A stretch of 64,000 nucleotides of DNA from Minisyncoccota bacterium (GTDB taxonomy: Bacteria; Patescibacteriota; Minisyncoccia; Phycocordibacterales; GWA1-40-21): the NCBI GenBank assembly GCA_041656855.1, contig JBBACS010000003.1, positions 4,902 through 68,901 on the forward strand, given 5' to 3'. Made by a program: the position numbers and the translations under genes. Shown piece after piece: positions 7,904-50,856 of this stretch (the stretch's first letter is position 1; every line of letters begins with the position of its first letter). The notes under the pieces are model-generated. The model saw only the letters and a list, made by a program, of their open reading frames with translations. It had not been told where the DNA came from and made no database searches.

Positions 7904-8371
7904 CTAGGGATTTATAGCCTGTCTAATTGCGGTCTCAAAATCTCCGGGAACATCCGTTCCTATGCGATAGATTCTTCCGTTTTTCATAATTATTTCAACC
8001 GCATCAAAACCAGAAACATTATATATCCACATCTTGGGCCATAGCCACAACCTTATTCCCCAGCCATAATACCAATGATTCTTCACTTGCTTTACTGATA
8101 CTATTTCACTAAGTAAGAATTTTTTCTTGAAAATTCCATAGCCAAATTTTATCTGAAGACAATTTTTATCAATTGACGTTGTTAGTGTGGTAAACGATGC
8201 AAGAGTAAACGATATTAAAACCATTATGGTGGTAATGAGAAAATTTGTACCAGAATAGTATGAGGGTGTTTCAGTCCTGGCTATAATTTGAGCCCATGCA
8301 AATAACGCCAGCACAATCAGTGTGATAATAATCATCAGATATCCAATTTGAGTGTGTTTATATGAGGTCAT
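7904..8371 (-). CDS. hypothetical membrane protein
   Basis: 155-aa ORF with two N-terminal TM helices followed by a small soluble domain. Confidence 0.6.
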   Translation of the reverse strand: MTSYKHTQIGYLMIIITLIVLALFAWAQIIARTETPSYYSGTNFLITTIMVLISFTLASFTTLTTSIDKNCLQIKFGYGIFKKKFLLSEIVSVKQVKNHWYYGWGIRLWLWPKMWIYNVSGFDAVEIIMKNGRIYRIGTDVPGDFETAIRQAINP

Positions 8372-8452
8372 AATTTATTTGAGAATTTTCTTATTTAATT
8401 GTTCGAACTATTCCAACAACAACAAGACTGGCGTCAGATATTTTTTTGCCTA

Positions 8453-9229: not shown

Positions 9230-9420
9230 AGTGGATTATTATTTTTCTTCTTGCTCCTGATCACAACGACTATAATGACAATAATGAGTATGAGACCTAT
9301 CCCTTGCAATCCTGGACTATCATCAAATTCACCGAATACAATAAAAAATGTTCCCAACAATATTGCTAGAATTTTCGGGGTCCAGTATAAGATTTTATTT
9401 TTTATATCAGAATAGTTCAT
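9226..9420 (-). CDS. small membrane protein
   Basis: 64-aa ORF with two TM helices. Its stop overlaps the next ATG (ATGA, 9226-9229), suggesting translational coupling. Confidence 0.55.
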   Translation of the reverse strand: MNYSDIKNKILYWTPKILAILLGTFFIVFGEFDDSPGLQGIGLILIIVIIVVVIRSKKKNNNPL

Positions 9421-9508
9421 TTGTTTGTATTATATCTTAAAAATTCACTTTATTAAAAGACTGATTTTTATAATAAAACAAAAAAGCGACCAAAAGTCGT
9501 TATTTTTG

Positions 9509-9656
9509 TTTACAATTCTTTCGGCATTAGAATCACAGCTTTGTAGCTCTCCCTCGATTCTACGCGATAAAAATGTCCTAGCGGAATAAGTGAGTCTGGG
9601 ACCAAAATTTTATAAAACTAAAGCGAACCGGTCGCAAAACCAGTCGCTCACTCTTG
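9509..9656 (-). ncRNA. rearranged fragment of the mimic-element family directly downstream of tRNA-His
   Basis: On the minus strand it shares tgagcgac...ctttag, ggtcccagac, agcggaataagtga (inverted), gaatcgagggagag and cacagct with type II copies. No closing tRNA-like stem is present. Confidence 0.4.
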
Positions 9657-9728
9657 GGTGGCTATCGGGGGTTGAACCCGAACAAAGAGTTCCACAAACT
9701 CTTGTGCTACCGCTACACCATAGCCACC
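9657..9728 (-). tRNA. tRNA-His (GUG)
   Basis: Cloverleaf read by eye: G-1 plus gtggcta / tagccac acceptor, anticodon arm agagt-ttGTGga-actct, T-arm tcggg-ttcaacc-cccga, discriminator C. No complete encoded CCA. Confidence 0.9.
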
Positions 9729-12408: not shown

Positions 12409-12523
12409 TGGGATTCTGTCACAGCTCTTTTCTTCGCCGTCGCTCAGAAAAAGTTGCGACCCCGACTCAGCTGATTTTTCTACTGAAAAATCAGCTTCCG
12501 TCTTTCGAATCCCTTAGCACCCA
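12409..12523 (-). ncRNA. tRNA-cognate minihelix-mimic element, Val-type (type II, 3' end truncated)
   Basis: The minus strand begins gggtgctaagggattcgaa, which is antisense to the tRNA-Val 3' end. Then an 11-bp hairpin agctgattttt..aaaaatcagct and the hairpin ctttttc-TGAGCGACGGCGAA-gaaaag. It ends gaatccca. Confidence 0.6.
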
Positions 12524-12707: not shown

Positions 12708-13733
12708 CTAAACACTCTTGAATTTGTTCAAATCTAAATAAACCAATTTTGCTCTACCTTCAGATTCAATAATAGGAAATATTATCTTTTTACCAACAAC
12801 TTTTTTGTCATGAATAATCATTCCCAAATCAACTTTCATACTTTGATCTATTTTAATCCCTAGAGTTTTTAATAAGTTTAACAAATTTTCTCTAACTCGA
12901 GGTTTAGTTAGCCAAAGTGATTCGGTGAAAGCCAACTCTTTAATCATTCCAATGAGCACTGCTCTTCCATGACTAATCTTATATTTTAATTCAATAGCAT
13001 GTCCAAACGTGTGCCCAACATTAAGTGCCTGCCTGATATTATTATCTTTAAAATCATTTTTAACAAAATATTCTTTCACTTTAATAGACTTATTTATAAT
13101 TATTGGCAAATCATGACTTTTGACTAAAGTTCTAATAGAATATTTTTTAAGAAAAGATAATATTGAAGTATCTTTTATCAAACCAGCTTTAATTATTTCA
13201 CCGAGCCCATCAATGACTTGTTCATTAGATAATGATTTCATAAAGCGAGTATCAATAATTGTAGACACAGGCAAATAAAAACTACCAATTAGATTTTTAT
13301 ATTCTAAAAAATCAACAGCAGTTTTTCCACCATGAGAACTATCTACTTGTGCCAATAATGTTGTTGGCACTTGAATATATTTTATTCCACGGAGATATAT
13401 AGACGAAGCAAAGCCAACAATGTCCCCAACTGTGCCACCTCCAAAAGCAATAACAATACTTTTTCTATCGAGATTAAGATTTAAAAATTTCTCGAGTAAT
13501 TTTTCTAATTCATTCCAGCTTTTTGCTTTTTCACCATCAGGAATTATAATAATGTTTGATTTTTTGATACCAATTTCTTTAATAGCCCAATTTAATTTTT
13601 TAGATAATTTTAAAGAGGTAACGAGACAAACTTTTGATGGTTTTTGAACTTTTAATATTTTGTGGATTGATTTTAAAGAGTGTGTAAGGGACATGGAAAT
13701 ATTATAACATGACAAACATAATACAAATTTCAT
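12708..13733 (-). CDS. aroB: 3-dehydroquinate synthase-like sugar phosphate cyclase
   Basis: IAFGGGTVGDIVGFASSIYLRGIKYIQVPTTLLAQVDSSHGGKTAVD and NVGHTFGHAIE. The track start 13766 is a TTG; ATG candidates are 13733 and 13694. Confidence 0.8.
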   Translation of the reverse strand: MKFVLCLSCYNISMSLTHSLKSIHKILKVQKPSKVCLVTSLKLSKKLNWAIKEIGIKKSNIIIIPDGEKAKSWNELEKLLEKFLNLNLDRKSIVIAFGGGTVGDIVGFASSIYLRGIKYIQVPTTLLAQVDSSHGGKTAVDFLEYKNLIGSFYLPVSTIIDTRFMKSLSNEQVIDGLGEIIKAGLIKDTSILSFLKKYSIRTLVKSHDLPIIINKSIKVKEYFVKNDFKDNNIRQALNVGHTFGHAIELKYKISHGRAVLIGMIKELAFTESLWLTKPRVRENLLNLLKTLGIKIDQSMKVDLGMIIHDKKVVGKKIIFPIIESEGRAKLVYLDLNKFKSV

Positions 13734-13768
13734 ACGCTTTTCCTTTGGGGCCCAACCCAAACTCAAAG

Positions 13769-13901
13769 CCCCCTTGGCAGGAAGTTCGACCGTTACACGG
13801 TCAGTACCCCCATTGGAGATTTTGTTTCGCTACACTCACAAAATCTGCTCAATGGGGCTTCGATTCCTGACGTGAGCAAAGACTTTTGCTCACTCCAAGG
13901 C
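13769..13901 (-). ncRNA. tRNA-cognate minihelix-mimic element, Arg(UCU)-type (type I)
   Basis: On the minus strand: gccttgg, hairpin gtgagcaaa..tttgctcac, tcaggaatcgaa (antisense of the T-arm), ccccattg..caatgggg helix, gtactg-gaccgTGTAAcggtc-gaa, then cttcctgccaaggg. Confidence 0.65.
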
Positions 13902-17289: not shown

Positions 17290-18063
17290 TTAACCTAAAA
17301 TTGTTCCTTCTTTTATAAATTCAGGCACTTCCATAAGCGCTAATTTGTCTTCTGATTTGACAGCAAGTATCATACCGTTACTTAGAAGACCCATGAGAGG
17401 TCTTGGCTCTAAATTTGTGACAAAAGCAACTTTTTTACCAACTAAAATTTTATTTTCCGGAAAAAATTTAGCTATTCCGGAGACAATCTGCCTTGGCTCG
17501 CTCTCAGCAAAATCTACAGAAAGTTTATAAAGTTTATCAGAACCAATAACTGCATCCGCAGAAAGTATTTTACCAACTTTCATTTCAATTTTTTTAAAAT
17601 CATCATAATTAATCTTTGAACTCTCCCTTGAAGCACTCTCACCACGAGATGGTATTACATTTTTCGTGGCTTTTTCTTGCCTATTTTTTTCTTTATCCAT
17701 AAAAGTTTGTAATATTATAGCTGCGGCAGAAGCATCAATCATATCTGTCTTGCCAAAAGTTTTCTCTACTTGCATTGATGACATAAACTCTGGTTCAAGT
17801 GAAATAGGGAGTTTTATAGCTGTAGATAAATCTCTTTTAAAAGAAACTATCTTGGGACTAATCTTATTGTCTTCACCCTTATAATCTTTTGATTCACCGA
17901 TGACAATAGCATTTACTTCAAATTCTTTAATCAAATCTGATATCTTGTTTATTAATTCAGCATTATTTTCCAATACTATTTTAGGAAAAGCCACTTTTCC
18001 TTCTACGTCAGAAATGGCGATTCCTACTCTTTTTTCTCCATAATCTATACCTAAATATTTCAT
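17290..18063 (-). CDS. ruvX: RuvX/YqgF putative pre-16S rRNA nuclease fused to a C-terminal tRNA-binding (Trbp111/CsaA-like) domain
   Basis: The N-terminus MKYLGIDYGEKRVGIAISD...VIGESKDYKGE...DASAAAIILQ is the YqgF fold. The C-terminus FKKIEMKVGKILSADAVIGSDKLYKLSVDF..QIVSGIAKFF..LVGKKVAFVTNLEPRPLMG..SNGMILA is the OB-fold tRNA_bind signature. ATG at 18063. Confidence 0.8.
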   Translation of the reverse strand: MKYLGIDYGEKRVGIAISDVEGKVAFPKIVLENNAELINKISDLIKEFEVNAIVIGESKDYKGEDNKISPKIVSFKRDLSTAIKLPISLEPEFMSSMQVEKTFGKTDMIDASAAAIILQTFMDKEKNRQEKATKNVIPSRGESASRESSKINYDDFKKIEMKVGKILSADAVIGSDKLYKLSVDFAESEPRQIVSGIAKFFPENKILVGKKVAFVTNLEPRPLMGLLSNGMILAVKSEDKLALMEVPEFIKEGTILG

Positions 18064-18147
18064 GTTTATTATCTTACTATGTAAATGCGAAATATAAAAG
18101 CCGTTTTTGCTATACAAAAACGGCTTTTATTATAAGTTTGATATGGT

Positions 18148-21100
18148 TTAAACTACAAAATTCATATTTATAACTCCACTCTTTATATCTATAGCTTCTG
18201 TTTTGAATACTTCGGTATAAGTGCCATCATCTTTCTTCTTCTCTACTTTGATGGAATATTTTCCTTTAGGTACAAGAGCATAATAGTCTCCAAATTTGTC
18301 AGCGATTTTCTTTGTAAGCGGAGTATCTTCACCTTCTCTAAAGATTTTTACTATAGCAAAAGATAGAGGAATTTTAGTGTTCTTTTCTATAAGGGTACCT
18401 GATTTCTTTGATTTCAATACTACATAATTGAGTATGTAAGCAAGAAAGTAGAAACCAACTATTATATAGTTATAGGGTTCAGGTGTCACTATTACAGCAA
18501 TTACTGATATAAGTGCACCAATAATAAAAACAAATTTTGATATCTTTGCCCAAGTAATATCTTTTTGTTTAGTGAATTTATTTACATCCATCTTTGTTTT
18601 AGCAAATTCATTCCAATCGAATGATAGAGAGTCCATAGGGATATTCTTTGTAATCATTTCTCCTTCAGAAACTATAAGTTCTTCACCGAAATATAAATCA
18701 TTGTAAACTTCATCAAATGATTTACCTGCCATTTTCTTTGATGGTTGTATGTAGTTTGTTTTTGTAGCAACTATTTTGTATTTACCTGGTAGTACAAGGA
18801 ATCCATATCTTCCATCTATGTCTGTAATAGCTCCGGCTACTTCTTTGTTAGTCTCTGTGCTTACAAGAGATACATATACTGGATCAAGTGGTCTCTTTGT
18901 GACTGAATCATATACTGTACCCCATTGTCTTTGCTTTCTTCTGATACCTAGAGCTCCTGCAAGTAGTCCAAACATTCTTGTAGGAATGAGCCAGACTTCT
19001 GAAAATGATATTGGTGTAGCAAAAGCGACAGTTGATATTGAAGCAGCTACTCCAAAAACTAATGCTGTAGTAGTTACAACTTTTGCAGTAATAGATATTG
19101 TGGAATCATTAAATATATTTTTGATTTTTAGAATAGCTTCTTGTACAAGGAAAGATACTTGTCCATAGCTTTCTTTTATAGTATCTATTGCTCCAAGTAT
19201 AAGCTGTTGATCAAAAATATCATTAATATCAAATGATGGTTTTTCTGCTGTTGGTTTTGTTACTTCAGGTTTGGTATCAGGTTTTGTTTGAGTAACTTCT
19301 GGAATAGTTGTATTTGTATCTGGAGTAATTATTTCTGGGATTATTTGTTCAACTGTAGTTGTAGATATTTCTTCAGTAGTTGTTGCTACTTTTTCGGTTG
19401 TTGTAGCTTTGGTTTCGAAGATGGTGATACAATTATTATCTAATAGATTGTTGACATATTCTCTCGTTAGATTTCCAAAGTTTCCTGTACCTGTAGTAAG
19501 TCCTATTGGTGCTAAAATTTTATCAAAATTTGCTTCTTGTAATCTTTTTACAGCATTTGTTGTCTTAGTACCATAGAAATATGTTTCGTTTTCATATGAA
19601 CCTGGACCTGATGTGCTTACAGTAAAGTTGTTTTCATTAAGAAAGGTTTGAAGTTTCAAAACATCTAATGGATTGTTGTCCGCTGGTGCTGGAAATAGAT
19701 TTGAAGTAAAACAGAATCCTTCTTTTATACGAGATCCGGGTAATTTAGTATCGATATCTTTATCTTCTTCAACTATTATGATAGTGTCAGGAGTTGATGA
19801 TTTTGTAACTATTATTGTTGTCGTTGTTGAAATATTACCAAATATTAAACCAGTGATAGTTGTTGTACCTTCTCCTTGTGCATGAAATACTCCAGAGTCA
19901 TCTATTCTTCCAACAGATGAATCTGATGTGGACCAATATACTTTTGTATTTATTGAATTACCATATTGATCTAATATTTCTGCAGTAAATTGTTTTGTTG
20001 TGTCTAGATTAATAGAAGAATTTTCTGGAATAATTCTAAATGTTGTAAGGACTGAAGGTTCTTGAGTTTCTGTTATAACTCTTCTACTGCTTCTTCTTGA
20101 TGGAAATATCCAGTTTGTATTTCCTCCTCCGTCAACACAACCTACTAGACAATAGAAAGGTTCTGAGCTCAAGTTGTGGGAGCCAGAGATATTGAGGTAT
20201 GAGAACGAGGGAGTTTCAGAGCCAGTATATAATATATTTGTGTATGGTAAATTTGATGCTAAAGAAATCTTTTGAATTTTATTCTGACTTCCTCCATCTG
20301 CGACAAAAATATTTCCTGATGAATCAATATCTAGACCATAGGGACTACTGAATTCTCCATTGCCAGTTCCAGCATAACCAAAGGCATAGATTAAATTGAA
20401 ATAAGAATTATAAATTCGGAAACGATAACTACTAGGCTCGGCAACAATAATATTGTTATTACTATCTATACGTACAGTGGTAGGATATATGAGGCCATCT
20501 TTTTCACTACTTGGAGGTCCACCAATTTGAGAAACATAATTACCTGATGAATCGAATTTTTGGATTCTGTGATTTGCTGAGTCAGCAACATAAATGTTTC
20601 CAAAAGAATCTAGTGCAATGCCATTTGGTTGATTAAATTGTCCATTTCCATCACCCGCAGTTCCAAACTGAGAAAGATAGTTTCCGGAAGAATCAAATTT
20701 TTGAACACGATAATTATTTTGATCAACCACATAAATATTTCCTGTAGGATCAATTGCTACACCTCTTGGATAATTCAATTGTCCATCTCCACTTCCCGCA
20801 GTTCCTATAGTCTGGAGTAAATTACCAGATAAATCTGTTTTTAATATTCTATTACAGTGGTCAGATATAAAAAGATGACCTTGAAAATCTCCGGTTATAT
20901 TAAAAGGTCCACAAAAACCACCCATTCCACCAAAAGTGATGTTTTGATCAAAATAAGAAAGAACATTAAAATCATTATCAAATTTTATTACTCTACCACC
21001 AGATTCGACTTCATAAAAATTATCTTCTTCATCAACAAATATATTGTATGGTGATATAAAACCTCCCAAAGTACCATTTATATAAGATCCAATTGATGAA

Positions 21101-23550
21101 TAAAACGAATACCTTGATGGAATAAATTTATACATTTTATTGTTTGAAGAACCTGTCACAAATACATCACCTGAAGAATTTACAGAAACATGTGTTGGAC
21201 TTGTGAGCTGATTTGTACCATCAACGTCTCCACTGATTGTAGCAAAAACAGCTCCTTCTGAATTAAAAATTTGAATTCTATGATTATTGGTATCAGCTAC
21301 ATAAAGATAACCGGAGGAATCTAAATAAATACCTGTCGGACTATCAAATTGTCCCAATCCACTACCATAAGAACCAATTGAAGGCAAAAAATTTCCCGAG
21401 GAATCGAATTTTTGAATGCGATTATTCCCAGTATCAGATACATATATATTTCCCAAAGAATCTATTTTTATATCATTAGGCCCACTAAACTGTCCTTCTC
21501 CAGAACCACTTGAACCAAATTGAGAAACATAATTACCGGATGAATCAAATCTTTGAATTCTATTATTTCCTTGATCCACTACATACAAATTTCCCCCACT
21601 ATCAAAATCCATCCCCCTTGGATTATTAAACTCACCATTACCATTTCCAGGGGCTGGAGATGTTGATCCTATAGTCTGAAGTAGTGTACCATTCTGATCA
21701 AATTTTAATACACGACTACACTGGTCTGAGAAATAGATATTTCCAGATGTATCTCTTACTATATCAGACGGACCACAATGATTATTATAAGAAAATTCAG
21801 ATAAAAGATTCATATATTTATCCATAGTCTTAACACGTCCACCTTGTTCAATTGAATATATATTTTCAGATGAATCAATATCCATGCCAGCTATAGTCCA
21901 GAAAAAATCATTTACAGATCCGTCAATAAAATATAAATATGAATAATCAATTGAAGATCCAGAAGCTAAACCAATGGATAACAAATTATCAATACTTCCA
22001 TTTAAGGCTAATGTACCTGTTATTGTGGTTGTGTCTCCGGCAGGAGATAGTAATGACGATGTAGAGCTTGATTGTTTTGTAAGATTTTCAAATGTATTAT
22101 CACCAGAAATAGTTTGCGAAACGCCCACAAAATTTACTGTTCCACCGTTAGCAATAAATGTCCCTCCAATCTTTGACCAATTTCCATAGACATTGAGAGT
22201 GTAACCATTCAGGTCGAGAGTACCACCAAACAAAATTGTTAAATTATTGATACTCTCATCTTTAGTAAGTGTAACGGTGCCTACAGAAATATTTGCATTA
22301 CTGTTAATATCTGTACTACTTGTAGAAATAAAATTTATTGTTCCACCATTTTCTATAAGAGAACCGGAAATTATTGCAAAATTCCACCAACTAGATACAT
22401 TTAGCGTATATCCGGCCAAATCTAAAGATGCACCATTAAAAATTACCACTCTATCCGCACTTTGATCATGTGTAAGCGTTACAGTACCAGTACCTATATC
22501 GACTTCATCATTAATTCCAGGATAAGTTGAACCTTCTATCGGCACAGCAGGAATCTTGGAAGAATTATTTATGGCTGTTTTTGGCGTACCATCTGGATTA
22601 AAAACAACAACTCTATTATGAAACATGTCACTAGCATAAATATCCCCGGAAGTAGCAACATTTACATCAGCCATATAATCTATACTATCTATAAAATTAT
22701 ACTGTTCAATCAAAGTAAAATCTAAATTATACAATCCAACAGCACTATTACCGGGGCTCTGAACAAGACCGACGTATAATTGACCATTTGATGGAATTTT
22801 CAATCCCCAAAAACCATAACTAGATGGCGGTAAAAATTCTGACGATGAGGCTGTTCCATCTGGATTTAATATCCTCGCATAGTTATGAGGAGAAACTAAA
22901 TAAATTTCACCCGTTGTTGGAGAGATTGTTATACCAAACGGTTCTGATGCAGCTATAGTTGTAGAAGCATTACCTTCTAAATCCATAACCACAATTCTAT
23001 TGTTATTAGTATCTGTTATATAAATATATCCATTATGTATGGCAATATCTGATGGGTGATCTAATGCGAGTCCATCATAAAGAGTTGAGCTAGCAAAAGT
23101 ACTATAGAGAGTTCCGTCAGGATTGGCGATTGTAATATAACCACCAGATTGATTTACAATGTAAACTCTGTCAGATGTGGGATCAACTTCTGCTCCCATA
23201 GGCCCATTTAAACCTAGATTTGTTATCTGTGCGATTGGTACATTATTTGAATCAGCTATTATCAGGTAACTATTACCGCAAGAAGTAATGTACAAATTTC
23301 CAGTATTAGGAGAAATTGCTATATCTCTTGGTTGGTTAAGAATTATATTCGTACCAGTATTACCCCATGTTGTCGGACTATTCCAATCGCCTGAAGTATT
23401 TGTGGAAAAAGCCGTTGCAAAACTATTTATATTAAATATCTTTTTCCAATTTTCTTTAGGAACAGCAAAAGTAGCAGTAAGAACAATAACAAAAAGAACA
23501 AGGGTGGTGATAAATAAAGGGGATTTGATTGTGATATTAGACGAATTCAT
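18148..23550 (-). CDS. giant (~1800 aa) cell-surface protein: NHL-repeat beta-propellers, Ig-like (Big_2), PG-binding-like, TM segments and CarboxypepD_reg-like domains
   Basis: More than 15 NHL repeats (NNRIQKFDSSGNY.., GQFNQPNGIALDS..). Big_2-like FTAEILDQYGNSINTKVYWSTSDSSVGRIDDSGVFHAQGEGTTTITG. PG_binding-like LKLQTFLNEN...AVKRLQEANF. DIDGRYGFLVLPGKYKIVATK. N-terminal anchor. The track start is a GTG; ATG at 23550. Confidence 0.85.
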   Translation of the reverse strand: MNSSNITIKSPLFITTLVLFVIVLTATFAVPKENWKKIFNINSFATAFSTNTSGDWNSPTTWGNTGTNIILNQPRDIAISPNTGNLYITSCGNSYLIIADSNNVPIAQITNLGLNGPMGAEVDPTSDRVYIVNQSGGYITIANPDGTLYSTFASSTLYDGLALDHPSDIAIHNGYIYITDTNNNRIVVMDLEGNASTTIAASEPFGITISPTTGEIYLVSPHNYARILNPDGTASSSEFLPPSSYGFWGLKIPSNGQLYVGLVQSPGNSAVGLYNLDFTLIEQYNFIDSIDYMADVNVATSGDIYASDMFHNRVVVFNPDGTPKTAINNSSKIPAVPIEGSTYPGINDEVDIGTGTVTLTHDQSADRVVIFNGASLDLAGYTLNVSSWWNFAIISGSLIENGGTINFISTSSTDINSNANISVGTVTLTKDESINNLTILFGGTLDLNGYTLNVYGNWSKIGGTFIANGGTVNFVGVSQTISGDNTFENLTKQSSSTSSLLSPAGDTTTITGTLALNGSIDNLLSIGLASGSSIDYSYLYFIDGSVNDFFWTIAGMDIDSSENIYSIEQGGRVKTMDKYMNLLSEFSYNNHCGPSDIVRDTSGNIYFSDQCSRVLKFDQNGTLLQTIGSTSPAPGNGNGEFNNPRGMDFDSGGNLYVVDQGNNRIQRFDSSGNYVSQFGSSGSGEGQFSGPNDIKIDSLGNIYVSDTGNNRIQKFDSSGNFLPSIGSYGSGLGQFDSPTGIYLDSSGYLYVADTNNHRIQIFNSEGAVFATISGDVDGTNQLTSPTHVSVNSSGDVFVTGSSNNKMYKFIPSRYSFYSSIGSYINGTLGGFISPYNIFVDEEDNFYEVESGGRVIKFDNDFNVLSYFDQNITFGGMGGFCGPFNITGDFQGHLFISDHCNRILKTDLSGNLLQTIGTAGSGDGQLNYPRGVAIDPTGNIYVVDQNNYRVQKFDSSGNYLSQFGTAGDGNGQFNQPNGIALDSFGNIYVADSANHRIQKFDSSGNYVSQIGGPPSSEKDGLIYPTTVRIDSNNNIIVAEPSSYRFRIYNSYFNLIYAFGYAGTGNGEFSSPYGLDIDSSGNIFVADGGSQNKIQKISLASNLPYTNILYTGSETPSFSYLNISGSHNLSSEPFYCLVGCVDGGGNTNWIFPSRRSSRRVITETQEPSVLTTFRIIPENSSINLDTTKQFTAEILDQYGNSINTKVYWSTSDSSVGRIDDSGVFHAQGEGTTTITGLIFGNISTTTTIIVTKSSTPDTIIIVEEDKDIDTKLPGSRIKEGFCFTSNLFPAPADNNPLDVLKLQTFLNENNFTVSTSGPGSYENETYFYGTKTTNAVKRLQEANFDKILAPIGLTTGTGNFGNLTREYVNNLLDNNCITIFETKATTTEKVATTTEEISTTTVEQIIPEIITPDTNTTIPEVTQTKPDTKPEVTKPTAEKPSFDINDIFDQQLILGAIDTIKESYGQVSFLVQEAILKIKNIFNDSTISITAKVVTTTALVFGVAASISTVAFATPISFSEVWLIPTRMFGLLAGALGIRRKQRQWGTVYDSVTKRPLDPVYVSLVSTETNKEVAGAITDIDGRYGFLVLPGKYKIVATKTNYIQPSKKMAGKSFDEVYNDLYFGEELIVSEGEMITKNIPMDSLSFDWNEFAKTKMDVNKFTKQKDITWAKISKFVFIIGALISVIAVIVTPEPYNYIIVGFYFLAYILNYVVLKSKKSGTLIEKNTKIPLSFAIVKIFREGEDTPLTKKIADKFGDYYALVPKGKYSIKVEKKKDDGTYTEVFKTEAIDIKSGVINMNFVV

Positions 23551-23611
23551 TGTTAAATAATACACTAAAAAATATATTTGAAAATGATGTCTTTCGTGAT
23601 ATTATATTCTT

Positions 23612-24465: not shown

Positions 24466-24655
24466 AAAGGGGCGAGATTCGGCTATTACTTAGCCAGGTA
24501 CTTTTCCGCTTCATATTATTAAGAGAGGGCGAGAATTTCGAAACTTACAGTTTCAGTACACCTTTTCTATTTTATATTCGTGATTACACTCTATAAAATT
24601 ATCAAAGGTCTTCGAATCTCGCACGAAAGCTCTCCCAGAGCTTTCTCCTCTGCGC
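24466..24655 (-). ncRNA. tRNA-cognate minihelix-mimic element, Ser-type (type I, with a second partial 3' module)
   Basis: On the minus strand: gcagagg, hairpin gaaagctc-tggg-gagctttc, gcgagattcgaa (antisense of the T-arm), accttt-GA..GA-aaaggt, gtactg-gaaacTGTAAgtttc-gaaa, then ttctcgccctctc. A second gtacctggctaagtaa..gaatctcgcccc module follows. ORFs 24580..25263 and 24591..24773 are spurious. Confidence 0.65.
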
Positions 24656-28981: not shown

Positions 28982-29145
28982 GTCCTCTCAAGCAAGCAAA
29001 CTGCTTTGCTTGCGGGTTTGAATCGAACAGCGGAATGATATTTTTTCAGCAGAAAAATGAATGAGCTGGTGCCCAGACAAATCCGAGTGACGACGAGGAT
29101 TTAGTCGCGGGAGATAAATGTAATCATGTTCCAACTGAGAGGACA
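28982..29145 (+). ncRNA. tRNA-cognate minihelix-mimic element, Arg(GCG)-type (type II)
   Basis: gtcctctca, hairpin gcaagcaaa-ctgc-tttgcttgc, gggtttgaatcgaac, agcggaat, hairpin tttttc-agca-gaaaaa, gaatgagctggtgcccagac, hairpin aaatcc-GAGTGACGACGA-ggattt, agtcgcgggaga, then ttccaactgagaggaca (verbatim tRNA 3' end). Confidence 0.7.
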
Positions 29146-29147: not shown

Positions 29148-29173
29148 AAAAAATCCCCTTTCGGGGATTTTTT
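29148..29173. terminator. bidirectional intrinsic terminator (mimic element / rpsT)
   Basis: aaaaaatcccc-tttc-ggggatttttt. Confidence 0.85.
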
Positions 29174-35607: not shown

Positions 35608-35904
35608 TCATCCATCAGGCGCTTTTTTCGCTAACTCAAATCTTTCCATTTCATCCTTATTGGTTCCAATTCTTTCGAGGGGGAAATCTTCGTCCTGAAT
35701 CATTTTTTTGAGTGATTCAAGAGAAAATCTGTAATCATAATCATGATCGCCAATAGGACCTCTTCGCAAATTTCCCAAACATTTTTGGGCAAAAATTACC
35801 GCTCGCGATTTCTCCTTTTCTTTTAATTCAGGGTCGTCAAAAGCAAACACAACAACCAAAACAATAGAGATTATAGCCACGGTCAAAAGAATTATACTAA
35901 GCAT
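35608..35904 (-). CDS. small membrane-anchored protein, hypothetical
   Basis: 98 aa. N-terminal TM. SD ttGGAGGtttagtATG. Confidence 0.55.
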   Translation of the reverse strand: MLSIILLTVAIISIVLVVVFAFDDPELKEKEKSRAVIFAQKCLGNLRRGPIGDHDYDYRFSLESLKKMIQDEDFPLERIGTNKDEMERFELAKKAPDG

Positions 35905-35988
35905 ACTAAACCTCCAAGGTTTAAATTTTTTATTTGAGTGAACAAGCTATTATAACGTTACATCAATATATAATGCCTGTCAAACTAA

Positions 35989-36150
35989 TGTGCGCTTAGT
36001 TGGACACGCTTCGCATTCTCCCTCGACTAAAGCTTCGTCGTCACTCAGCTTTGTCTGGGCACCAGCTCATTCGTCCCGCAAGCTTGCGGGACATTATTCC
36101 GCTGTTCGATTCCAACACACAAGCAAAGCAGTTTGCTTGTTTAAGCCACA
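35989..36150 (-). ncRNA. tRNA-cognate minihelix-mimic element, Lys-type (type II)
   Basis: On the minus strand: tgtggcttaa, hairpin caagcaaa-ctgc-tttgcttg, gttggaatcgaac, agcggaat, hairpin gtcccgca-agc-ttgcgggac, gaatgagctggtgcccagac, hairpin aaagc-TGAGTGACGACGAA-gcttt, agtcgagggaga, then tccaactaagcgcaca (verbatim tRNA-Lys 3' end). ORFs 35990..36178, 36000..36251 and 36153..36365 are spurious. Confidence 0.7.
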
Positions 36151-36169
36151 AATTATTTATAAAAATTTG

Positions 36170-36242
36170 TGCGCTTAGTTGGAATCGAACCAACGACCGT
36201 CTCCTTAAAAGGGAGCTGCTCTACCGACTGAGCTATAAGCGC
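36170..36242 (-). tRNA. tRNA-Lys (UUU)
   Basis: gcgctta acceptor, D-arm gctc-agtcggta-gagc, anticodon loop ctTTTaa, T-arm gttgg-ttcgatt-ccaac. Confidence 0.9.
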
Positions 36243-36288
36243 ATCAATTAACCGAGAAAATATAACAAGTTTTTTGCAAAATGTCCAA

Positions 36289-37032
36289 TTATAATTCCAA
36301 AATAAATTTCTCCAGTGCAATGAAAAAATCAATATTCCCTCTATGTGCCTCATGATACATCTCAATAAGCTCTGAAGACATTTTTTCTAGCTCACCATCT
36401 TTATAATTTCTTGAATATCCTCTAGATTTTTCAAATGGAAATGGCTTCATGTTTGCTTCACTTGGTGTCTTACATTTTTTAGCAAGCAACATACTTTTTA
36501 CCTGCCAGAAAAATATTCCGTGAACTTCTTCGGCTGGCACCTGTTCAGCGAGAGCGTCTTGATACAGTACCCACAATCCCCTTTTATCTCTTCTACCGAG
36601 AGCATCCGCAAACTCAAAAAAATCTATTTTTTCTCCTATTAAAGCTAATTTTTCTTTTTTATTTAAAGCTTTTGCTGGTTTCTCAAAATCTTGAACTTTT
36701 TCTGCATGCTTTTCTACTTTTGTAAGAGCTGTTTTGTCCATTTTCCCTTCTGCAAAAATAAAAATATTATCAGAACTAGCTAGCTCTTTGAGGTTTTTTA
36801 AAATTAATTCTTTATTTTCTTTGTTATCAAAAGTTTTGTATAAAAATACGATATATTTACTGGAAAAAAGAGCCTGCCCACTTGAAAGTTCTAATATTTT
36901 ATCCAAAGTTAAATCTTCGTCTCCTATTTTGATAAGGGTCGCATCCGGTTTTTTTGAAAGCAAAGAGTCAACGGTAATTTTCGCCTTTTTTCTTGCAGAT
37001 TCTGTATCTGTTCCATAATAAAAATAAATCAT
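36289..37032 (-). CDS. holA: DNA polymerase III delta subunit (HolA)-like
   Basis: MIYFYYGTDTESARKKAKITVDSL...LFSSKYIVFLYK...NIFIFAEGKMDK fits the clamp-loader delta N-terminal pattern. It is shorter than typical HolA. Confidence 0.55.
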   Translation of the reverse strand: MIYFYYGTDTESARKKAKITVDSLLSKKPDATLIKIGDEDLTLDKILELSSGQALFSSKYIVFLYKTFDNKENKELILKNLKELASSDNIFIFAEGKMDKTALTKVEKHAEKVQDFEKPAKALNKKEKLALIGEKIDFFEFADALGRRDKRGLWVLYQDALAEQVPAEEVHGIFFWQVKSMLLAKKCKTPSEANMKPFPFEKSRGYSRNYKDGELEKMSSELIEMYHEAHRGNIDFFIALEKFILEL

Positions 37033-44157: not shown

Positions 44158-44290
44158 CGGAGTGAGTAAGCAAACCACTTTGCTTACGTTCGGGATTCGA
44201 AAAGGTTCTCCCATATTTTTGAGCAATTAATATTGCGAGAAAATGGGAAACCTGTACTGCTCCTGTAAGGAGAGAAATTCCCGGCACTCG
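44158..44290 (+). ncRNA. tRNA-cognate minihelix-mimic element, Pro-type (type I)
   Basis: cggagtg, hairpin gtaagcaaa-ccac-tttgcttac, ttcgggattcgaa, aggttctcccat..atgggaaacct helix, ttttt-GA-gcaat..attgc-GA-gaaaa, gtactg-ctccTGTAAggag-agaaa, then ttcccggcactc. ORF 44008..44226 is spurious. Confidence 0.7.
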
Positions 44291-44341: not shown

Positions 44342-45874
44342 TTAAACCTTATGACTCTTTCTAATCTCCTTTAATTCTTCCTCATTTTCTTCCTCTTTCC
44401 TTTCTTTTCCTTCCTCCCCCATTTCTCTCAATTTTTTTTCTGGAAGCTTTATAAGTTCAATAGCTTTTTTATTTAAATATTCTTCTGTATTTCTTTTTGG
44501 ATCATCCAGAACTTCTTCAAGAAGTGCATGTAAAACGAAACCAATTTTGGGTCCAGGAATTTCGCCTGTTACATCCATAATTTTTTTACCATCAATGTTA
44601 AGCATTCCAACAGAAATCGGGTCTCTCATAGCTTCATCAAGCATTGCATGATACTTTCTCAGTCTATATGGATCTTCTTTTGGCCTGCCCATTCCTATTC
44701 TATCGCAAGCTCGCAAATCCATAAGATCCCAGACATTATCTTTTCCAACTCTAGCTACAATTCTTCTAACAGCTGATAAACTGATGAGTTCTGTATCAGC
44801 AAAAAACATATGTACTCTAACGAATTTAGTAACTTTTTCTATAACTTTTGCAGGAAATCTCAAATCTTGTAAAATCTTTTCTGTCATTCTCGCACCAATT
44901 ACTTCATGCCCATAAAAAGTTGGCTTTTTCTCCCCCTCTCTTTTAGATTTAGGCTTCCCTATATCATGCAATAGGGCCGCAAGTCGAACTTCTAATGAAA
45001 GTTTTTTATCAGCAGCGTGTTGCAAAGATTTCAGTGAATGTTCCCATACATCATGTATATGTGCACCGCCTTGTTCTATTCCGATAGTTTTTTCTAATTC
45101 CGGAATAATATATTTTAATAAGCCGAATTTCAGACAAGATTTTAGCCCATGTGCCGGCTCACTAGACATAATTATTTTTGTAAATTCATCACGAATTCTT
45201 TCTTTTGCAATGTTTGAAAGTAAATTTGATTCTTCTGCTAATGCTTTTTCAGTTGCGCTATCAATTTCAAAACCGACATAGTTTCCTATTCTTACAGCAC
45301 GCAATATTCTAAGTCCATCTTCTTGAAATCTTTCATGCGGATTTCCTACAGTTTTTAGAACTTTATTTTTTAAATCTTCCTGACCGGAAAATAGGTCAAC
45401 GATTTGTCCTTTATAAAAATCTTTCTTACTTACCACTAGGTCAGCAGACTTTTCGTGACTTCCCTCATCTTCAATACTCAAAGCAATAGCATTTATCGTG
45501 AAATCTCTCCTCTTTAAATCATCTTCAAGCTTATTACTGAAAGTAACCTTGTCTGGCCTTCTATTGTCAGAATATTCAGATTCAAGCCTATATGGGGTCA
45601 CCTCAATCACTTTGAGTGTTTCATCGGAAACCGTTTCGTTTACTACACCTACAGTTCCATAATTGTTTTCATAAAAAGTATCAGGAAATATCTTTATAAT
45701 TTCTTCTGGTTTAGCATTTGTCGTAAGATCCCAATCTTTAGGTTTCACACCAATCAAAATATCACGAACACAACCCCCTATTAAATAGGCCTCAAATCCA
45801 ACACCTTTAAGTTTTTGTGAAACTTCTAGGACTTCCTTTGGAATTGGACCGTATTCTGTGATAGTTTTTTTCAT
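44342..45874 (-). CDS. cca: CCA tRNA nucleotidyltransferase with HD domain
   Basis: YLIGGCVRDILIG, DWDLTT, RRDFTINA, LRILRAVR and LLHDIGKP. Confidence 0.9.
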   Translation of the reverse strand: MKKTITEYGPIPKEVLEVSQKLKGVGFEAYLIGGCVRDILIGVKPKDWDLTTNAKPEEIIKIFPDTFYENNYGTVGVVNETVSDETLKVIEVTPYRLESEYSDNRRPDKVTFSNKLEDDLKRRDFTINAIALSIEDEGSHEKSADLVVSKKDFYKGQIVDLFSGQEDLKNKVLKTVGNPHERFQEDGLRILRAVRIGNYVGFEIDSATEKALAEESNLLSNIAKERIRDEFTKIIMSSEPAHGLKSCLKFGLLKYIIPELEKTIGIEQGGAHIHDVWEHSLKSLQHAADKKLSLEVRLAALLHDIGKPKSKREGEKKPTFYGHEVIGARMTEKILQDLRFPAKVIEKVTKFVRVHMFFADTELISLSAVRRIVARVGKDNVWDLMDLRACDRIGMGRPKEDPYRLRKYHAMLDEAMRDPISVGMLNIDGKKIMDVTGEIPGPKIGFVLHALLEEVLDDPKRNTEEYLNKKAIELIKLPEKKLREMGEEGKERKEEENEEELKEIRKSHKV

Positions 45875-46622: not shown

Positions 46623-46841
46623 GCGAGCGAGTAAGCAAATCTACTTTGCTTACGTCCGGGAATCGAAAACCTTGAGTATATTTTTGAACTTTTACTAAAG
46701 TGAAAAAATACGAAAGGTGTACCGTCCATGTAATGGAAGATAAGCGAAGCGGTCCCGGCGCATTTACCGTAGTAGATTATATTCGGGATAGGGCCTGAAT
46801 ATAATTTTGTAGAAAGTGTACTCACGGTTCCCGTCGCTAGC
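46623..46841 (+). ncRNA. tRNA-cognate minihelix-mimic element, Gly(GCC)-type (type I, with a second partial 3' module)
   Basis: gcgagcg, hairpin gtaagcaaa-tctac-tttgcttac, tccgggaatcgaa, acctt-GA-gta..tac-GA-aaggt, gtaccg-tccaTGTAAtgga, then ggtcccggcgc. A second gtgtactcacggttcccgtcgc module follows. ORFs 46486..46698 and 46505..46843 are spurious. Confidence 0.7.
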
Positions 46842-49902: not shown

Positions 49903-50856
49903 TTAGTTCTTGTTTTTGTTATGAAAATTCTTGTGGATATCTCGTAAATGTTTATCCGTAACATGAGTATATATCTGGGTTGTAGCTATACTTGAATGGC
50001 CTAACATGGCTTGAACACTACGTATATCAGCACCATTTGAAAGCAAATCCGTTGCAAAACAGTGACGAATAACGTGTGGTGTAACTTTTTTGGAAATTCC
50101 TGACATTATTGCATATCTTTTTACTATTCTTTCTATTGACCTGCGAGTGAGTCCTTCATCTTTTGTTTTGTCTTCTTTACCTTTAAGTAAACTTTTTGGA
50201 ATACCCTCATCACTAACTTTTACAAAAAGTGCATCCGACATATCTTTTCTTAAAGCCAAATATGTTTTTATTGCATCCTTAGCTTCCTGCGAAAGAAAAA
50301 CCACGCGAACTTTTCCCCCTTTTCCTCGAATGGAAAATTCATCTTGTTTGATATCCAAATCATTTGTTAGAGAGCAAAGTTCAGAAACACGAAGACCGGT
50401 AGAAAACAAGAGTTCCAAAATAGCGTGTCCACGAGCCACTTTTTCAGGATTTTCCTCCAGATCTGGGGCTTTTAAAAGCCTGTTCAATTCATCTTGTGAA
50501 ATGACATCAATTGATCTTTCACCAACTTTTGCAAGTTCTATTTCATCTGCATGCAGGGAAGTAATGCCACGCTTTGTAAGAAATTTTAAAAAACTTCGCA
50601 GTGCAATCAAATAATAATTTTGTGTTTTCTTTTTCATCGTGTCTTGAGTCGCACGATTATTGCCAGCGACTTGACGATTGAGCCAAATGCGAAAATCCCT
50701 GACTTTTTCATAAGTAATATCTTTTGGGTCAGTAATTTTTGTTTGCTCCAAAAAAACAGTTAAATAGTGATTATAGTTTTCTACAGTACGAAGAGCACGA
50801 CCTCTTTCTATTTCCATATATTCAAGAAATTGTCTTTTTAGATCTTGCAAATTCAT
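49903..50856 (-). CDS. xerC: tyrosine recombinase XerC/XerD family
   Basis: ERGRALRTVENY, GLRVSELCSL, VTPHVIRHCFATDLLSNGADIRSVQAMLGHSSIATTQIYTHV (R..HxxR..Y). Confidence 0.9.
   Translation of the reverse strand: MNLQDLKRQFLEYMEIERGRALRTVENYNHYLTVFLEQTKITDPKDITYEKVRDFRIWLNRQVAGNNRATQDTMKKKTQNYYLIALRSFLKFLTKRGITSLHADEIELAKVGERSIDVISQDELNRLLKAPDLEENPEKVARGHAILELLFSTGLRVSELCSLTNDLDIKQDEFSIRGKGGKVRVVFLSQEAKDAIKTYLALRKDMSDALFVKVSDEGIPKSLLKGKEDKTKDEGLTRRSIERIVKRYAIMSGISKKVTPHVIRHCFATDLLSNGADIRSVQAMLGHSSIATTQIYTHVTDKHLRDIHKNFHNKNKN

Follow-up and report, generated by a model that had tools for sequence, protein, structure and literature searches.

A folded non-coding element with arms copied from a neighbouring tRNA gene in a Minisyncoccota bacterium, possibly a cassette that homes to tRNA 3' ends

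Positions 35989-36150 of the window (the whole stretch of DNA analysed here, 64,000 nt) hold exactly one whole element, located on the minus strand behind tRNA-Lys(UUU). We tentatively regard this span as one complete copy of a non-coding, non-autonomous cassette, mobile or selfish, which homes to the 3' ends of tRNA and tmRNA genes and bears arms templated on its target; this is our best reading, at a probability of roughly 0.45. At least three conserved cores can replace one another in the cassette, and the type II module in the span is one of them; the family is apparently an undescribed folded non-coding element of CPR bacteria. When the 162-base span was folded alone, its MFE structure was equal to the covariation model, at -64.2 kcal/mol (z = -5.0 against shuffles). 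The parts of the element and its neighbours are as follows.

36169-36242, minus strand: tRNA-Lys(UUU), the neighbour whose 3' end is copied (ARAGORN and Rfam tRNA)
36148-36170, minus strand: cap hairpin ACAAATT-TTTATAAAT-AATTTGT, connecting the tRNA 3' end to the inverted copy
35989-36150, minus strand: the whole element, or 'shadow', of tRNA-Lys(UUU), with arms, hairpin H and type II core
36142-36150, minus strand: 5' arm A, UGUGGCUUA, one base missing, paired with 35989-35998
36119-36140, minus strand: hairpin H, 9 bp with a CUGC loop, at the acceptor/T junction
36104-36116, minus strand: 5' arm B and J1, GUUGGA-AUCGAAC
36020-36104, minus strand: type II core, a three-way junction (RNAalifold and pair counts)
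36101-36104 with 36063-36066, minus strand: Pa, enclosing GGAA, hairpin 1 and UGA
36072-36093, minus strand: hairpin 1, UGUCCCGCA-AGCU-UGCGGGACG (sequence and fold)
36020-36059, minus strand: Pb and hairpin 2, after the linker GGU, within the type II core
36035-36046, minus strand: tip of hairpin 2, the reported 'loop' GAGUGACGACGA
36005-36019, minus strand: tail AGAAUGCGAAGCGUG with a GCGAAGC mini-hairpin, an optional sub-module
35989-36003, minus strand: 3' arm CCAACUAAGCGCACA, a direct 15-nt copy of the tRNA-Lys 3' end with 0 mismatches

In the original prediction, the host of the module was a tRNA-like sequence carrying an insert. This description was too simple: the arms copy the adjacent tRNA gene at its 3' end, one inverted and one direct, and the likely biology changes as a consequence. 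Positions 53-74 of the tRNA, with the T-loop, recur inverted in the 5' arm, where hairpin H breaks them, and positions 61-74 recur in direct orientation as the 3' arm; from the two copies, a single tRNA-sense strand folds into a Y with stems of 7-9 bp and 5-6 bp. At tRNA-Lys, 5' arm A corresponds to the inverted acceptor 3' strand with the discriminator and one further base, and 5' arm B with J1 is the reverse complement of the T-stem 3' strand, the T-loop and G53. In 85 of 97 pairs, the J1 7-mer matched the reverse complement of the cognate T-loop exactly (observed mean 6.72/7 versus 5.83/7 in permuted pairs), and its identity to the sense T-loop (TTCGAAT/TTCGATT) was 0.84/7.

The arms copy the 3' strand of the gene, not the fold of the tRNA. 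In the acceptor arm, 15 informative cases versus 1 had a 5' strand exactly reverse-complementary to the 3' strand, and in the T arm 19 versus 1 had T5' equal to the reverse complement of T3'. At these ratios (15:1 and 19:1), an inverted copy of the 3' strand is preferred, and the model of the shadow as a tRNA duplicate with a sense 5' strand is rejected. Retention of G3.U70 for AlaRS in the shadows of tRNA-Ala and tmRNA was also discarded, as the tmRNA shadows are without it; the pair was kept in one scored tRNA-Ala case (L006) and, by reading of the sequences, in a second (L037). Arm identity to the tRNA ranged from 0.81 to 0.91, and the acceptor arms carried 147 one-sided breaking changes versus 12 compensatory ones. 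What is conserved and passed on is hairpin H together with the core; the arms invariably derive from the local tRNA and degrade once a copy has formed. A MITE was rejected, since the inverted arms differ at each locus, equal the local tRNA 3' end and surround a conserved part that is internal.

The type II module is a three-way junction of ~85-100 nt standing where the T-loop would be. It had been predicted to be conserved, modular and RNA-like with covarying stems, and this characterisation held: 89.6% of the cells in the core helices were paired versus 69.3% in shuffled alignments (RNAalifold, pair counts), and double-change cells numbered 307 versus 91. The conserved 12-14-nt loop that had been proposed as a docking site fared otherwise. 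The GAGUGACGACGA tip is not an open loop but an extension of the helix, made of tandem G.A/A.G, a G-C pair, a U-A pair and a GACG tetraloop. Positions 4 and 9 of the tip covary as a Y-R pair (C-G 31, U-A 12, U-G 1, C-A 0), and the tandem G.A/A.G at positions 1-2/11-12 is swapped for U-A/U-A, G-C/U-A and similar combinations in other members. Among 97 cores chosen without use of the loop motif, 43 (44%) had the GAG...CGA tip and 54 a plain Watson-Crick stem, the cap being GACG in 64 and GGCG in 11. Because the loop motif is not general, conservation does not lie in a docking-site loop; it lies in the junction nucleotides, which are near-invariant in many CPR lineages, and in the tetraloop. The stem of hairpin 1 is free in sequence across the family, with a loop that is mostly AGCA, AGUA or AGCU; two G.U pairs are invariant in type IIb; and hairpin H showed compensatory changes in 6 of 6 pairs (GU 51 versus AC 9 in A3).

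The tandem G.A/A.G beside a Watson-Crick stem, present at the hairpin 2 tip in 44% of the cores, resembles a kink-turn or K-loop. Nevertheless, the strands are symmetric (GAG[Y]...[R]CGA), the 3-nt bulge is absent and G.A is freely replaced by Watson-Crick pairs in 56% (54 of 97), and this identity was rejected. A hammerhead tip was likewise rejected, as CUGA...GAA occurs without the three-way core, and so were the small self-cleaving ribozymes in general (hammerhead, twister, pistol, hatchet, HDV-like), for which no Rfam match was obtained at E<=10.

The motif GAGYGACRRCGA has four matches in the 64,000-nt window versus 0 in 100 shuffles: 7304-7315 (minus), 12434-12445 (minus), 29085-29096 (plus) and 36035-36046 (minus). 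Besides the Lys copy, the matches lie in the following elements.

28982-29145, plus strand: shadow of tRNA-Arg(GCG), type II (IIa) core, tip at 29085-29096
12410-12522, minus strand: shadow of tRNA-Val(UAC), type IIb core, tip at 12434-12445
7240-7460, minus strand: His-B composite, tip at 7304-7315

A covariance model built from 44 copies recovered these four type II copies and no others from the window, scoring 137.8 bits for Lys, 135.8 for Arg(GCG), 97.5 for Val and 37.3 for His-B; the next best score was 21 bits. The sequence strings on which the original prediction was based are all present where it placed them, and its comparisons were reproduced. Lys can be aligned with Arg over the full length, and the two copies share GAATGAGCTGGTGCCCAGAC exactly; at the same positions, hairpin 1 reads gtcccgca/tgcgggac in Lys versus tttttc/gaaaaa in Arg, and the stem of hairpin 2 aaagc/gcttt versus aaatcc/ggattt. 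The stems that bear GAGYGACRRCGA vary from copy to copy, and Val and His-B have an 11-bp hairpin, agctgattttt/aaaaatcagct, in common. In His-B, a type IIb core whose Pb holds an additional ~48-nt hairpin is followed by the GTACTG and TGTAA-loop hairpin of type I and finally by the tRNA-His 3' end copied in direct orientation; types I and II thus belong to one frame and can be combined, as expected of a modular family. The Val shadow is without hairpin H, and its 3' acceptor copy has decayed. In total, 8 of the 11 tRNAs in the window have shadows.

Rfam 15 (4227 models) matched only the tRNA itself within 35900-36300 at E<=10, and in searches of the whole window, at the gathering score and at E<=1, nothing overlapped any of the four type II copies. 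Related cores were found in at least 42 species-representative CPR genomes (Minisyncoccota/Paceibacterota) and in more than 119 metagenome contigs. The module is therefore neither a known Rfam family nor a private duplication, the two findings that had been named in advance as fatal to the prediction. An explanation by chance, by a recent private duplication or by an assembly artefact would fit the mere four copies in the window, and nothing else; with 0 matches expected, 42 independent assemblies besides the metagenome contigs, many studies and covariation, we regard this explanation as refuted. No description of the element was found in the searchable full-text literature. A phage origin was also rejected, since the IIa pattern had 0 matches in IMG/VR viral contigs and BLAST to phage and plasmid records gave no match.

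The location of the cores is closely tied to tRNA genes. A same-strand tRNA or tmRNA gene lies within 600 nt upstream of 94 of the 122 distinct type II cores; 14 others are at locus edges, and 0 of the 122 have an opposite-strand tRNA only. The type II cores sit 3' of 18 tRNA types and of tmRNA. A structured element stands behind 140 of 258 sampled tRNA/tmRNA genes, and a 13-nt tail copy with at most one mismatch downstream of 95 (median distance 168 nt), in a sample whose loci were picked for holding at least one element. Among pairs of cores at least 93% identical, 24 stand behind different tRNA species and 11 share the same species; for instance, the Lys core of the window is 98.9% identical to a core behind a tRNA-Ala (L037), the arms being local in each. 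The near-identical cores could partly stem from gene conversion and DNA uptake, not transposition. Orthologous holA-tRNA-Lys loci (83-89% protein identity) held differing arrays, truncated remnants, chimeras and one inversion. Units make arrays, with fast turnover between related genomes; tandem identical units were seen at L047, and ~75-nt nested units with GTGCG on both flanks at L181, L183 and L025. Insertion of cores into pre-existing empty scaffolds was rejected, as 0 empty minihelix scaffolds were found among the 258 genes. No presence/absence pair with identical flanks was recovered, and thus no insertion boundary is demonstrated.

The element may instead be a host tRNA-mimic small RNA, co-transcribed with the tRNA or made by read-through, which acts as a decoy, scaffold or sponge. 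We consider this explanation somewhat unlikely; it is the main rival of our best reading. The mimic would fold into an acceptor/T minihelix, in which H replaces the D and anticodon arms and the core replaces the T-loop/D-loop elbow; it would be excised by RNase P and RNase Z, and a bound factor would recognise the core or the top halves of tRNAs. The structured strand is indeed the tRNA-sense strand (GU 96 versus AC 36; in the IIb helix, GU 14 versus AC 1), the 7+5-bp coaxial geometry is tRNA-like with H exactly at the acceptor/T junction, and J1 retains a T-loop-like UCGAA. The strong covariation and the near-invariant junction nucleotides in many CPR lineages, as well as the abundance of the elements in the window, also favour a mimic. 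The sole promoter-like site lies upstream of tRNA-Lys, at 36287-36259, the cap hairpin of tRNA-Lys consists of A/T only and is not terminator-like, and no terminator-like site was found in 35850-36350, leaving none before the shadow; the Arg shadow is followed by a strong terminator-like hairpin at 29148-29173. Nevertheless, the acceptor-like arms are broken at ~25% of positions without compensation, the arms are 3'-strand copies from which identity elements such as G3.U70 are lost, and the J1/T-loop match has no role in the self-fold. Most caps resemble intrinsic terminators ahead of the shadow, and content varies among close relatives. Nor is the element a tRNA cloverleaf: hairpin H alone takes the place of the D and anticodon arms, the T-loop is reverse-complemented and followed by the ~100-nt core, and ARAGORN and RF00005 called the 11 tRNAs of the window and no shadows. 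At other loci, many caps resemble bidirectional terminators and some are merely the GCGAAGC mini-hairpin, which doubles as the cap at L030, L031 and L012.

When tRNA-Lys and its shadow were co-folded, the MFE structure was a long hairpin through the cap (-104 kcal/mol). This result would suit a cis-acting device of alternative pairing, in which the inverted copy pairs with the 3' half of the tRNA or with the direct copy, thereby governing how the adjacent pre-tRNA folds, is processed at its 3' end, terminates or is turned over by RNase III. The complementarity extends over the unpaired T-loop and the encoded flank, CCA included when present, as would be needed for pairing to the gene or its primary transcript, and the arms match the local tRNA, as they must. 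We nonetheless judge such a device to be quite unlikely, because it leaves unexplained the need for a conserved core of ~100 nt in several types, the arrays of two or three units, the tRNA-less orphan arrays (His-B) and the tolerated decay of the arms, and because about half of the tRNAs, three in the window among them, lack it.

The direct repeat of a tRNA or tmRNA 3' end is the classic att signature, and the elements might be footprints (attL/attR) of classical integrases, with the intervening ~170 nt as the remains of a decayed island. The median spacing of 168 nt, the use of tmRNA genes, a 2-kb gene-bearing insertion between tRNA-His and the His-B array and a Xer-like tyrosine recombinase in the genome (one gene in the window, 49903-50856) are in keeping with this idea. 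We find it highly unlikely, as the interior is a conserved, covarying structure of constant size, not random debris, an attP x attB exchange leaves the inverted target copy unexplained, and no integrase gene is found in or beside the units. Autonomous forms, in which an ORF would lie between the arms, were also rejected: only two long-distance cases were seen, and the 2-kb one in the window holds two hypothetical ORFs without recombinase domains. An all-against-all comparison of ORFs beside 42 loci gave no recurrent family except spurious ORFs over the elements, and no transposase, integrase or reverse transcriptase was linked to the elements among the neighbouring ORFs; a protein encoded in cis was rejected, as coding capacity is lacking as well. 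A gene for a fusion of RuvX with a tRNA-binding domain (17290-18117) is conserved in shadow-bearing relatives and is a weak candidate for a partner. It was rejected as a dedicated one, since L049 has shadows and its 8-kb locus shows the RuvX part only.

Comparison with known systems shows partial likeness in several directions. tRNA-like domains (the tmRNA TLD, YrlA/Y RNA, viral 3' TLS, mascRNA and plant mitochondrial t-elements) share with the element an acceptor-like stem on a T-like stem, a T-loop-like UCGAA, the lack of anticodon function and possible processing by RNase P/RNase Z. Unlike them, the element has stems copied from the 3' strand of the adjacent tRNA instead of a fixed family sequence, a reverse-complemented T-loop and a 100-nt junction, and it occurs in dozens of copies per genome, arrayed, with no matching Rfam model. 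tRNA and tmRNA genes are reportedly integration sites (attributed to Williams, 2002); casposons leave duplications of ~14-15 bp at tRNA genes, and tycheposons form arrays. With such tRNA-targeting integrative elements and casposons, the family shares the tRNA/tmRNA 3' end as target, a direct repeat of 13-16 nt (exact over 15 nt at tRNA-Lys), tandem arrays and rapid turnover. It differs from them in its size of ~160-190 nt, with no integrase or recombinase gene of its own or any other gene, the extra inverted copy of the target and the folded core.

Folded single-stranded recombination sites are known from integrons (attC) and from CTX-phi, whose attP(+) hairpin is used by XerCD. As in these sites, two inverted segments of a folded strand rebuild a target-like duplex, stem structure is conserved over sequence, only one strand adopts the fold and units accumulate in arrays at a single site. 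The likeness seen is one of architecture only; the element has no integron integrase or attI context, its three-way junction has near-invariant bases and its target mimic changes tRNA by tRNA. Palindrome-associated elements derived from IS200/IS605 rely on guide-to-target pairing, and TnpB uses omega-RNA guides. The element is likewise small, strand-specific, hairpin-rich and non-autonomous, with an internal segment that is complementary to the neighbouring target (J1 to the T-loop in this case) and a 3' end that runs on into a copy of the target sequence. Nevertheless, TnpA and TnpB are absent nearby, the hairpins are far longer, the target is directly repeated and the arms are tRNA-specific.

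If the element is a cassette that homes to tRNA 3' ends, a trans-acting machinery may recognise the folded core, as RNA or single-stranded DNA, and the arms of each new copy would be templated on the 3' end of the target. Templating might proceed by, for example, fold-back or strand-switch copying at the cap hairpin, or alternatively by recombination of a folded, target-mimicking single strand. Selection would act on the propagating lineage while individual insertions decay, and we infer that the core covaries for this reason. We know of no transposition or integration mechanism whose product is local arms interleaved with a travelling hairpin H and core, and the proposed mechanism is therefore a conjecture. 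Weighing against a mobile cassette, too, are the absence of any linked transposase, integrase or reverse transcriptase and the presence of just one Xer-like recombinase in the window. Several features suit a functional RNA equally well: the single promoter, the Arg terminator, the position of H and the G.U pairs of type IIb. It is also conceivable, if unlikely, that the arms are guide segments, with H and the core as an RNA or ssDNA scaffold directing a trans enzyme to one tRNA/tmRNA gene or transcript. The cassette would thereby home, or the cognate tRNA would be cleaved, modified or repaired, and the element would represent a new class of guide systems, target-templated and tRNA-directed, that is peculiar to CPR bacteria.

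For the module itself, the outcome is a corrected, covariation-backed secondary structure and a covariance model, from which a new RNA family entry can start. If the family is as it appears, about half of the tRNA/tmRNA genes in a large branch of CPR carry an unannotated structured element behind them. Such elements make up a measurable share of very small genomes and confound the annotation of tRNAs and intergenic regions. The puzzle is that the core moves between loci and the arms are rewritten for each target 3' end, with no linked protein gene. Solving it could uncover a novel form of DNA or RNA mobility, or tRNA-directed RNAs of a new kind, and would turn the tRNA biology of these reduced, episymbiotic bacteria into a concrete, testable question.

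The window is a housekeeping region in a metagenome-assembled genome (MAG) of Candidatus Paceibacterota (= Minisyncoccota, CPR), with genes for PNPase, RNase Y, RecJ, UvrD, the CCA-adding enzyme, HolA and ribosomal proteins; its HolA protein has 100% identity to a Paceibacterota protein at NCBI. Behind eight of its 11 tRNA genes, on the same strand, lies a frame that we call a shadow, i.e., the whole folded unit 3' of a tRNA or tmRNA gene. This frame comprises a palindromic cap hairpin, a 7-9-nt complement of the acceptor 3' strand of its own tRNA that extends over the discriminator and one base beyond, a side hairpin H (frequently AAGCAAA-CUGC-UUUGCUU), a complement of the T-stem 3' strand with a T-loop-like 7-mer (J1), a core of ~100 nt, and a direct copy of the T-stem and acceptor 3' strands. 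Type I cores carry GUACUG and a UGUAA-loop hairpin, and type II is the core of 35989-36150 (-), which is exactly one element. The shadows of the window include:

7304-7315 (-): GAGYGACRRCGA in the type II copy His-B (subtype IIb)
12434-12445 (-): GAGYGACRRCGA in the type II copy of tRNA-Val(UAC) (IIb)
29085-29096 (+): GAGYGACRRCGA in the type II copy of tRNA-Arg(GCG) (subtype IIa)
36035-36046 (-): GAGYGACRRCGA in the type II copy of tRNA-Lys(UUU) (IIa)
7465-7565 (-): type I shadow in the His-B array
13727-13891 (-): type I shadow behind tRNA-Arg(TCT)
24513-24643 (-): type I shadow behind tRNA-Ser
44168-44273 (+): type I shadow behind tRNA-Pro
46633-46738 (+): type I shadow behind tRNA-Gly(GCC)

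The type I shadows share the cap, inverted arm, hairpin H and direct arm with type II, and their cores consist of GUAC(U/C)G, the UGUAA-loop hairpin and an inner hairpin tipped GAG...CGA. None of the 11 tRNA genes encodes CCA, and the discriminator is A in ten and G in one (tRNA-Ser), followed by C in each; the CCA-adding enzyme gene (44342-45874) adjoins tRNA-Pro. A protein of 1805 aa with NHL/beta-propeller repeats and a Big_2 domain (18148-23565, -) is probably a surface protein unrelated to the shadows.

All strings quoted in the original prediction were located where it had placed them, and GAGYGACRRCGA occurs four times in the window versus none in 100 shuffles. As predicted, the Lys and Arg(GCG) copies, which have GAATGAGCTGGTGCCCAGAC exactly in common, align end to end with different stems in both hairpins, and the Val and His-B copies share an 11-bp hairpin, His-B bearing a TGTAA-loop hairpin in addition. 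Folded alone, 35989-36150 reaches -64.2 kcal/mol (z = -5.0) in the same structure that was later backed by covariation; for the opposite strand, the fold is weaker (-56.4 kcal/mol). In an alignment of 44 copies (A2), some invariant columns of which were imposed by the search pattern, RNAalifold predicted 28 pairs with compensatory changes in 24, so that the proposed covarying stems are borne out. A hand model of 33 pairs had 89.6% of its cells paired versus 69.3% after shuffling (0 of 500 shuffles reached the observed value) and two-sided changes in 307 cells versus 91, controls that are not to be read as probabilities; slid controls were 38-48% paired. A further alignment (A3) was fitted to the model.

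The type II module is a three-way junction with a T-like closing stem. J1 reads (A/U)UCGAA(C), and the 4-bp helix Pa, in which AGC/GCU is replaced by GGC/GCC, GAC/GUC or AAC/GUU, encloses GGAR, hairpin 1 and UGA. There is a GGU linker, and the helix Pb, which bears hairpin 2, differs between the subtypes: in IIa it is CCC/GGG interrupted by a 1x2 internal loop, and in IIb it runs without a break and has two invariant G.U pairs. The structured strand is the tRNA-sense strand, because G.U pairs outnumber A.C pairs (96 versus 36 in a set of 117 sequences; 14 versus 1 in the IIb helix). A covariance model (R1) recovered exactly the four type II copies from the window, followed by the type I shadows at low scores (11-21 bits) via the common frame, and found 123 copies in 100 metagenome loci, with rough E-values.

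The conserved 12-14-nt loop of the original prediction is a real string, but neither an open loop nor general. Positions 4/9 of GAGYGACRRCGA covary (C-G 31, U-A 12, U-G 1, C-A 0, under a search pattern that permitted all four combinations), positions 3/10 are G-C, 1/12 are G.A and 2/11 are A.G. In cores found independently of the loop, the tip reads UUGC-GACG-GCAA, GUGC-GACG-GCAC, GCGC..GCGC or ACGC..GCGU, or else hairpin 2 continues as a Watson-Crick stem up to a GACG cap. The tandem G.A version is present in 43 of 97 parsed cores and absent in 54; 64 cores have GACG as their terminal loop and 11 have GGCG. Reading the sequences of related modules in two loci (L025 and L181), we found a tip helix two pairs longer (GAGCGC-GACG-GCGCGA). 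Given the 4/9 covariation, the Watson-Crick replacements and the count of 43/97, the 'loop' is a short tetraloop-capped helix extension and a subfamily trait. The parts conserved family-wide are the junction nucleotides and the tetraloop.

The type II core pattern matched 60 loci in a collection of species-representative genomes, which we divided by eye on spacing and frame. The diagnostic 46-48-nt spacing and the full frame were present in 42, and the other matches, almost all from high-GC genomes, were judged chance, except that one (L028) looks like a genuine IIb core. All but one of the 42 come from MAGs that are CPR or lack a classification, labelled Paceibacterota, Taylor-, Vogel-, Lloyd-, Nomura- and Zambryskii-bacteria, Minisyncoccia or just 'bacterium'; the remaining locus (L008) is a short contig binned as Draconibacterium orientale. 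A second, loop-free pattern matched more than 119 metagenome contigs, a lower bound, and none in IMG/VR. Rfam 15 gave no match, whether at the gathering score, locally at E<=10 or across the window at E<=1, and full-text literature searches retrieved no description of the element. As other genomes carry the module and Rfam 15 has no match, the two outcomes that would have spoken against the original prediction, a private duplication and a known Rfam family, both fall away.

We counted 122 distinct type II cores. A tRNA or tmRNA gene lies on the same strand within 600 nt upstream of 94 of them, another 14 are at locus edges, and none has an opposite-strand tRNA only. The preceding genes comprise 18 tRNA types and tmRNA. 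In 85 of 97 unique pairs, J1 matches the cognate T-loop exactly in reverse complement, and the mean identity is 6.72/7 versus 5.83 ± 0.05 for permuted partners and 0.84/7 to the sense loop. This match does not stem from selection for the element's own fold, since J1 is unpaired there. Where tRNA stems hold non-Watson-Crick pairs, the shadow 5' strand corresponds to the tRNA 3' strand in reverse complement and does not copy the 5' strand (19:1 in the T stem, 15:1 in the acceptor), and G3.U70 of tmRNA becomes A-U in the shadow. Thus, the 5' half copies gene positions 53-74 and some flank in inverted form, CCA included where encoded, and the 3' end copies positions 61-74 directly. In genomes with encoded CCA, the inverted arm copies CCA too. 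The arms behind tmRNA copy its T-arm and acceptor 3' end, in one locus in two type II units (L107, 5349-6150) and in another in a type I unit, a type II unit and the start of a third (L142, 5154-5950). When tRNA-Lys and its shadow are co-folded, the MFE structure is a long hairpin pairing the tRNA 3' half with the shadow 5' half; a cis regulator acting by alternative pairing is nevertheless a less complete explanation of the element, and an improbable one.

The main rival explanation is a host RNA that mimics tRNA and is excised by RNase P and RNase Z. In its favour, the geometry resembles that of a tRNA, the G.U bias lies on the sense strand, tRNA-Lys has a single promoter in front of it and no terminator between the gene and its shadow, and a strong terminator follows the Arg shadow. 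Nevertheless, we consider it doubtful, as arm decay is uncompensated, identity pairs are lost, caps are terminator-like in most loci and turnover is fast. Arm identity to the tRNA is only 81-91%, and one-sided pair-breaking changes outnumber compensatory ones in the acceptor arm (147 versus 12) and the T-stem arm (57 versus 3), counts that depend on best-match placement and ignore indels. Compensatory changes reside in the core helices, unlike the arms.

Among pairs of cores with at least 93% identity, 24 involve two tRNA species and 11 only one, with local arms in each case. For instance, the window Lys core and a core behind tRNA-Ala in another genome (L037) are 98.9% identical, and the tRNA-Lys core of that genome (L183) is, by reading, visibly further from the window Lys core. 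The region downstream of holA is a rearrangement hot spot: in seven relatives with holA 83-89% identical, its content differs every time:

Window: IIa alone
L183: IIa, a third core type and IIb
L181: third type and a 5'-truncated remnant of window-type IIa
L180: IIb attached directly, and type I
L182: IIb attached directly
L184: IIb with decayed arms
L186: tRNA-Lys and shadow inverted relative to holA as compared with the window; chimeric unit
L185: tRNA absent

The third core type (~75 nt; L181 ~3450-3530, L183 ~3730-3810 in locus coordinates, and L025) reads GUGCG-GG(Y)CGGAGCGCGACGGCGCGAG-CGGGGUCGC-hairpin-YGUGACCACA and looks like a permuted relative of IIb; its units have GTGCG on both sides, resembling a nested insertion with a 5-nt duplication. 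Another locus (L047) has two identical units in tandem. Among 258 tRNA/tmRNA genes, 140 carry an inverted T-arm copy with an insert and 118 carry nothing (a shadow frequency of 54%, biased upward because loci were selected for a type II core), and none has an empty scaffold of arms without a core. GCGAAGC, an unusually stable mini-hairpin in DNA, recurs at many loci (in the window at 36008-36014 and in the 46700s) as a cap, as a tail sub-module and inside inserts, perhaps hinting that a single-stranded DNA fold may matter.

Further sites in the window bear on these units:

7240-9727 (-): tRNA-His (9656-9727) and, ~2 kb away, the His-B array (7240-7615), its cap preceded by a mutated tRNA-His 3'-end remnant (~7620)
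8453-9229 and 7904-8371: hypothetical ORFs in this stretch, with no significant Pfam domain
9523-9655 (-): rearranged remnant directly behind tRNA-His, with ggtcccagactcacttattccgct, which in reverse complement is a type II 5' part lacking the hairpin (AGCGGAATAAGTGAGTCTGGGACC), and GAATCGAGGGAGAG, similar to the type II 3' part
17290-18117 (-): 275-aa RuvX/YqgF nuclease fused to a C-terminal Trbp111-type tRNA-binding domain
49903-50856 (-): 317-aa Xer-like tyrosine recombinase adjoining rpsO and an NYN-domain gene

The 2-kb stretch resembles an islet that entered at a tRNA already bearing shadows. The RuvX fusion is a possible partner of tRNA-like structures; both domains are kept in the best 120 matches listed, the named ones being Paceibacterota or 'bacterium', and a shadow-bearing locus (L049) has the RuvX part only. 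The recombinase, the only one seen in the window, is probably housekeeping, because L183 has the same gene neighbourhood. No enzyme linked to the elements and no ORF family recurring near them was found, nor was a clean pair of empty and filled sites among the compared loci.

It is established that the fold is conserved, covarying and strand-specific, that the units are strictly linked to tRNA/tmRNA gene 3' ends, that the arms are templated on the local gene's 3' strand, and that cores travel, with arrays, turnover and decay. The best fit to these points, to which we tentatively give a probability of about 0.45, is a non-autonomous selfish or mobile cassette. Its core would have to fold for the cassette to propagate, and the arms would be made from the target at each birth, possibly by copying that folds back or switches strands at the cap hairpin, or by recombination of a folded target-mimicking single strand, as with integron attC and CTX-phi attP. 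Neither route alone explains the interleaving of local and travelling segments.

The element resembles tRNA-targeting integrative elements and casposons as well as folded single-stranded att sites. It differs from mobile-element classes in having no shared terminal repeats and no recombinase gene, BLAST against phage and plasmid records gave no match, and classical att footprints, a less complete explanation, are very improbable. It works somewhat like tRNA-like domains (tmRNA, YrlA, TLS, t-elements), but matches no Rfam or tRNA model and has its T-loop in reverse complement. A kink-turn bulge is absent. We rate the element as categorically new, because the testable defining features of each compared system fail. 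If it is an RNA mimic after all, it would count as an unusual new addition to the tRNA-like RNAs, a broad class.
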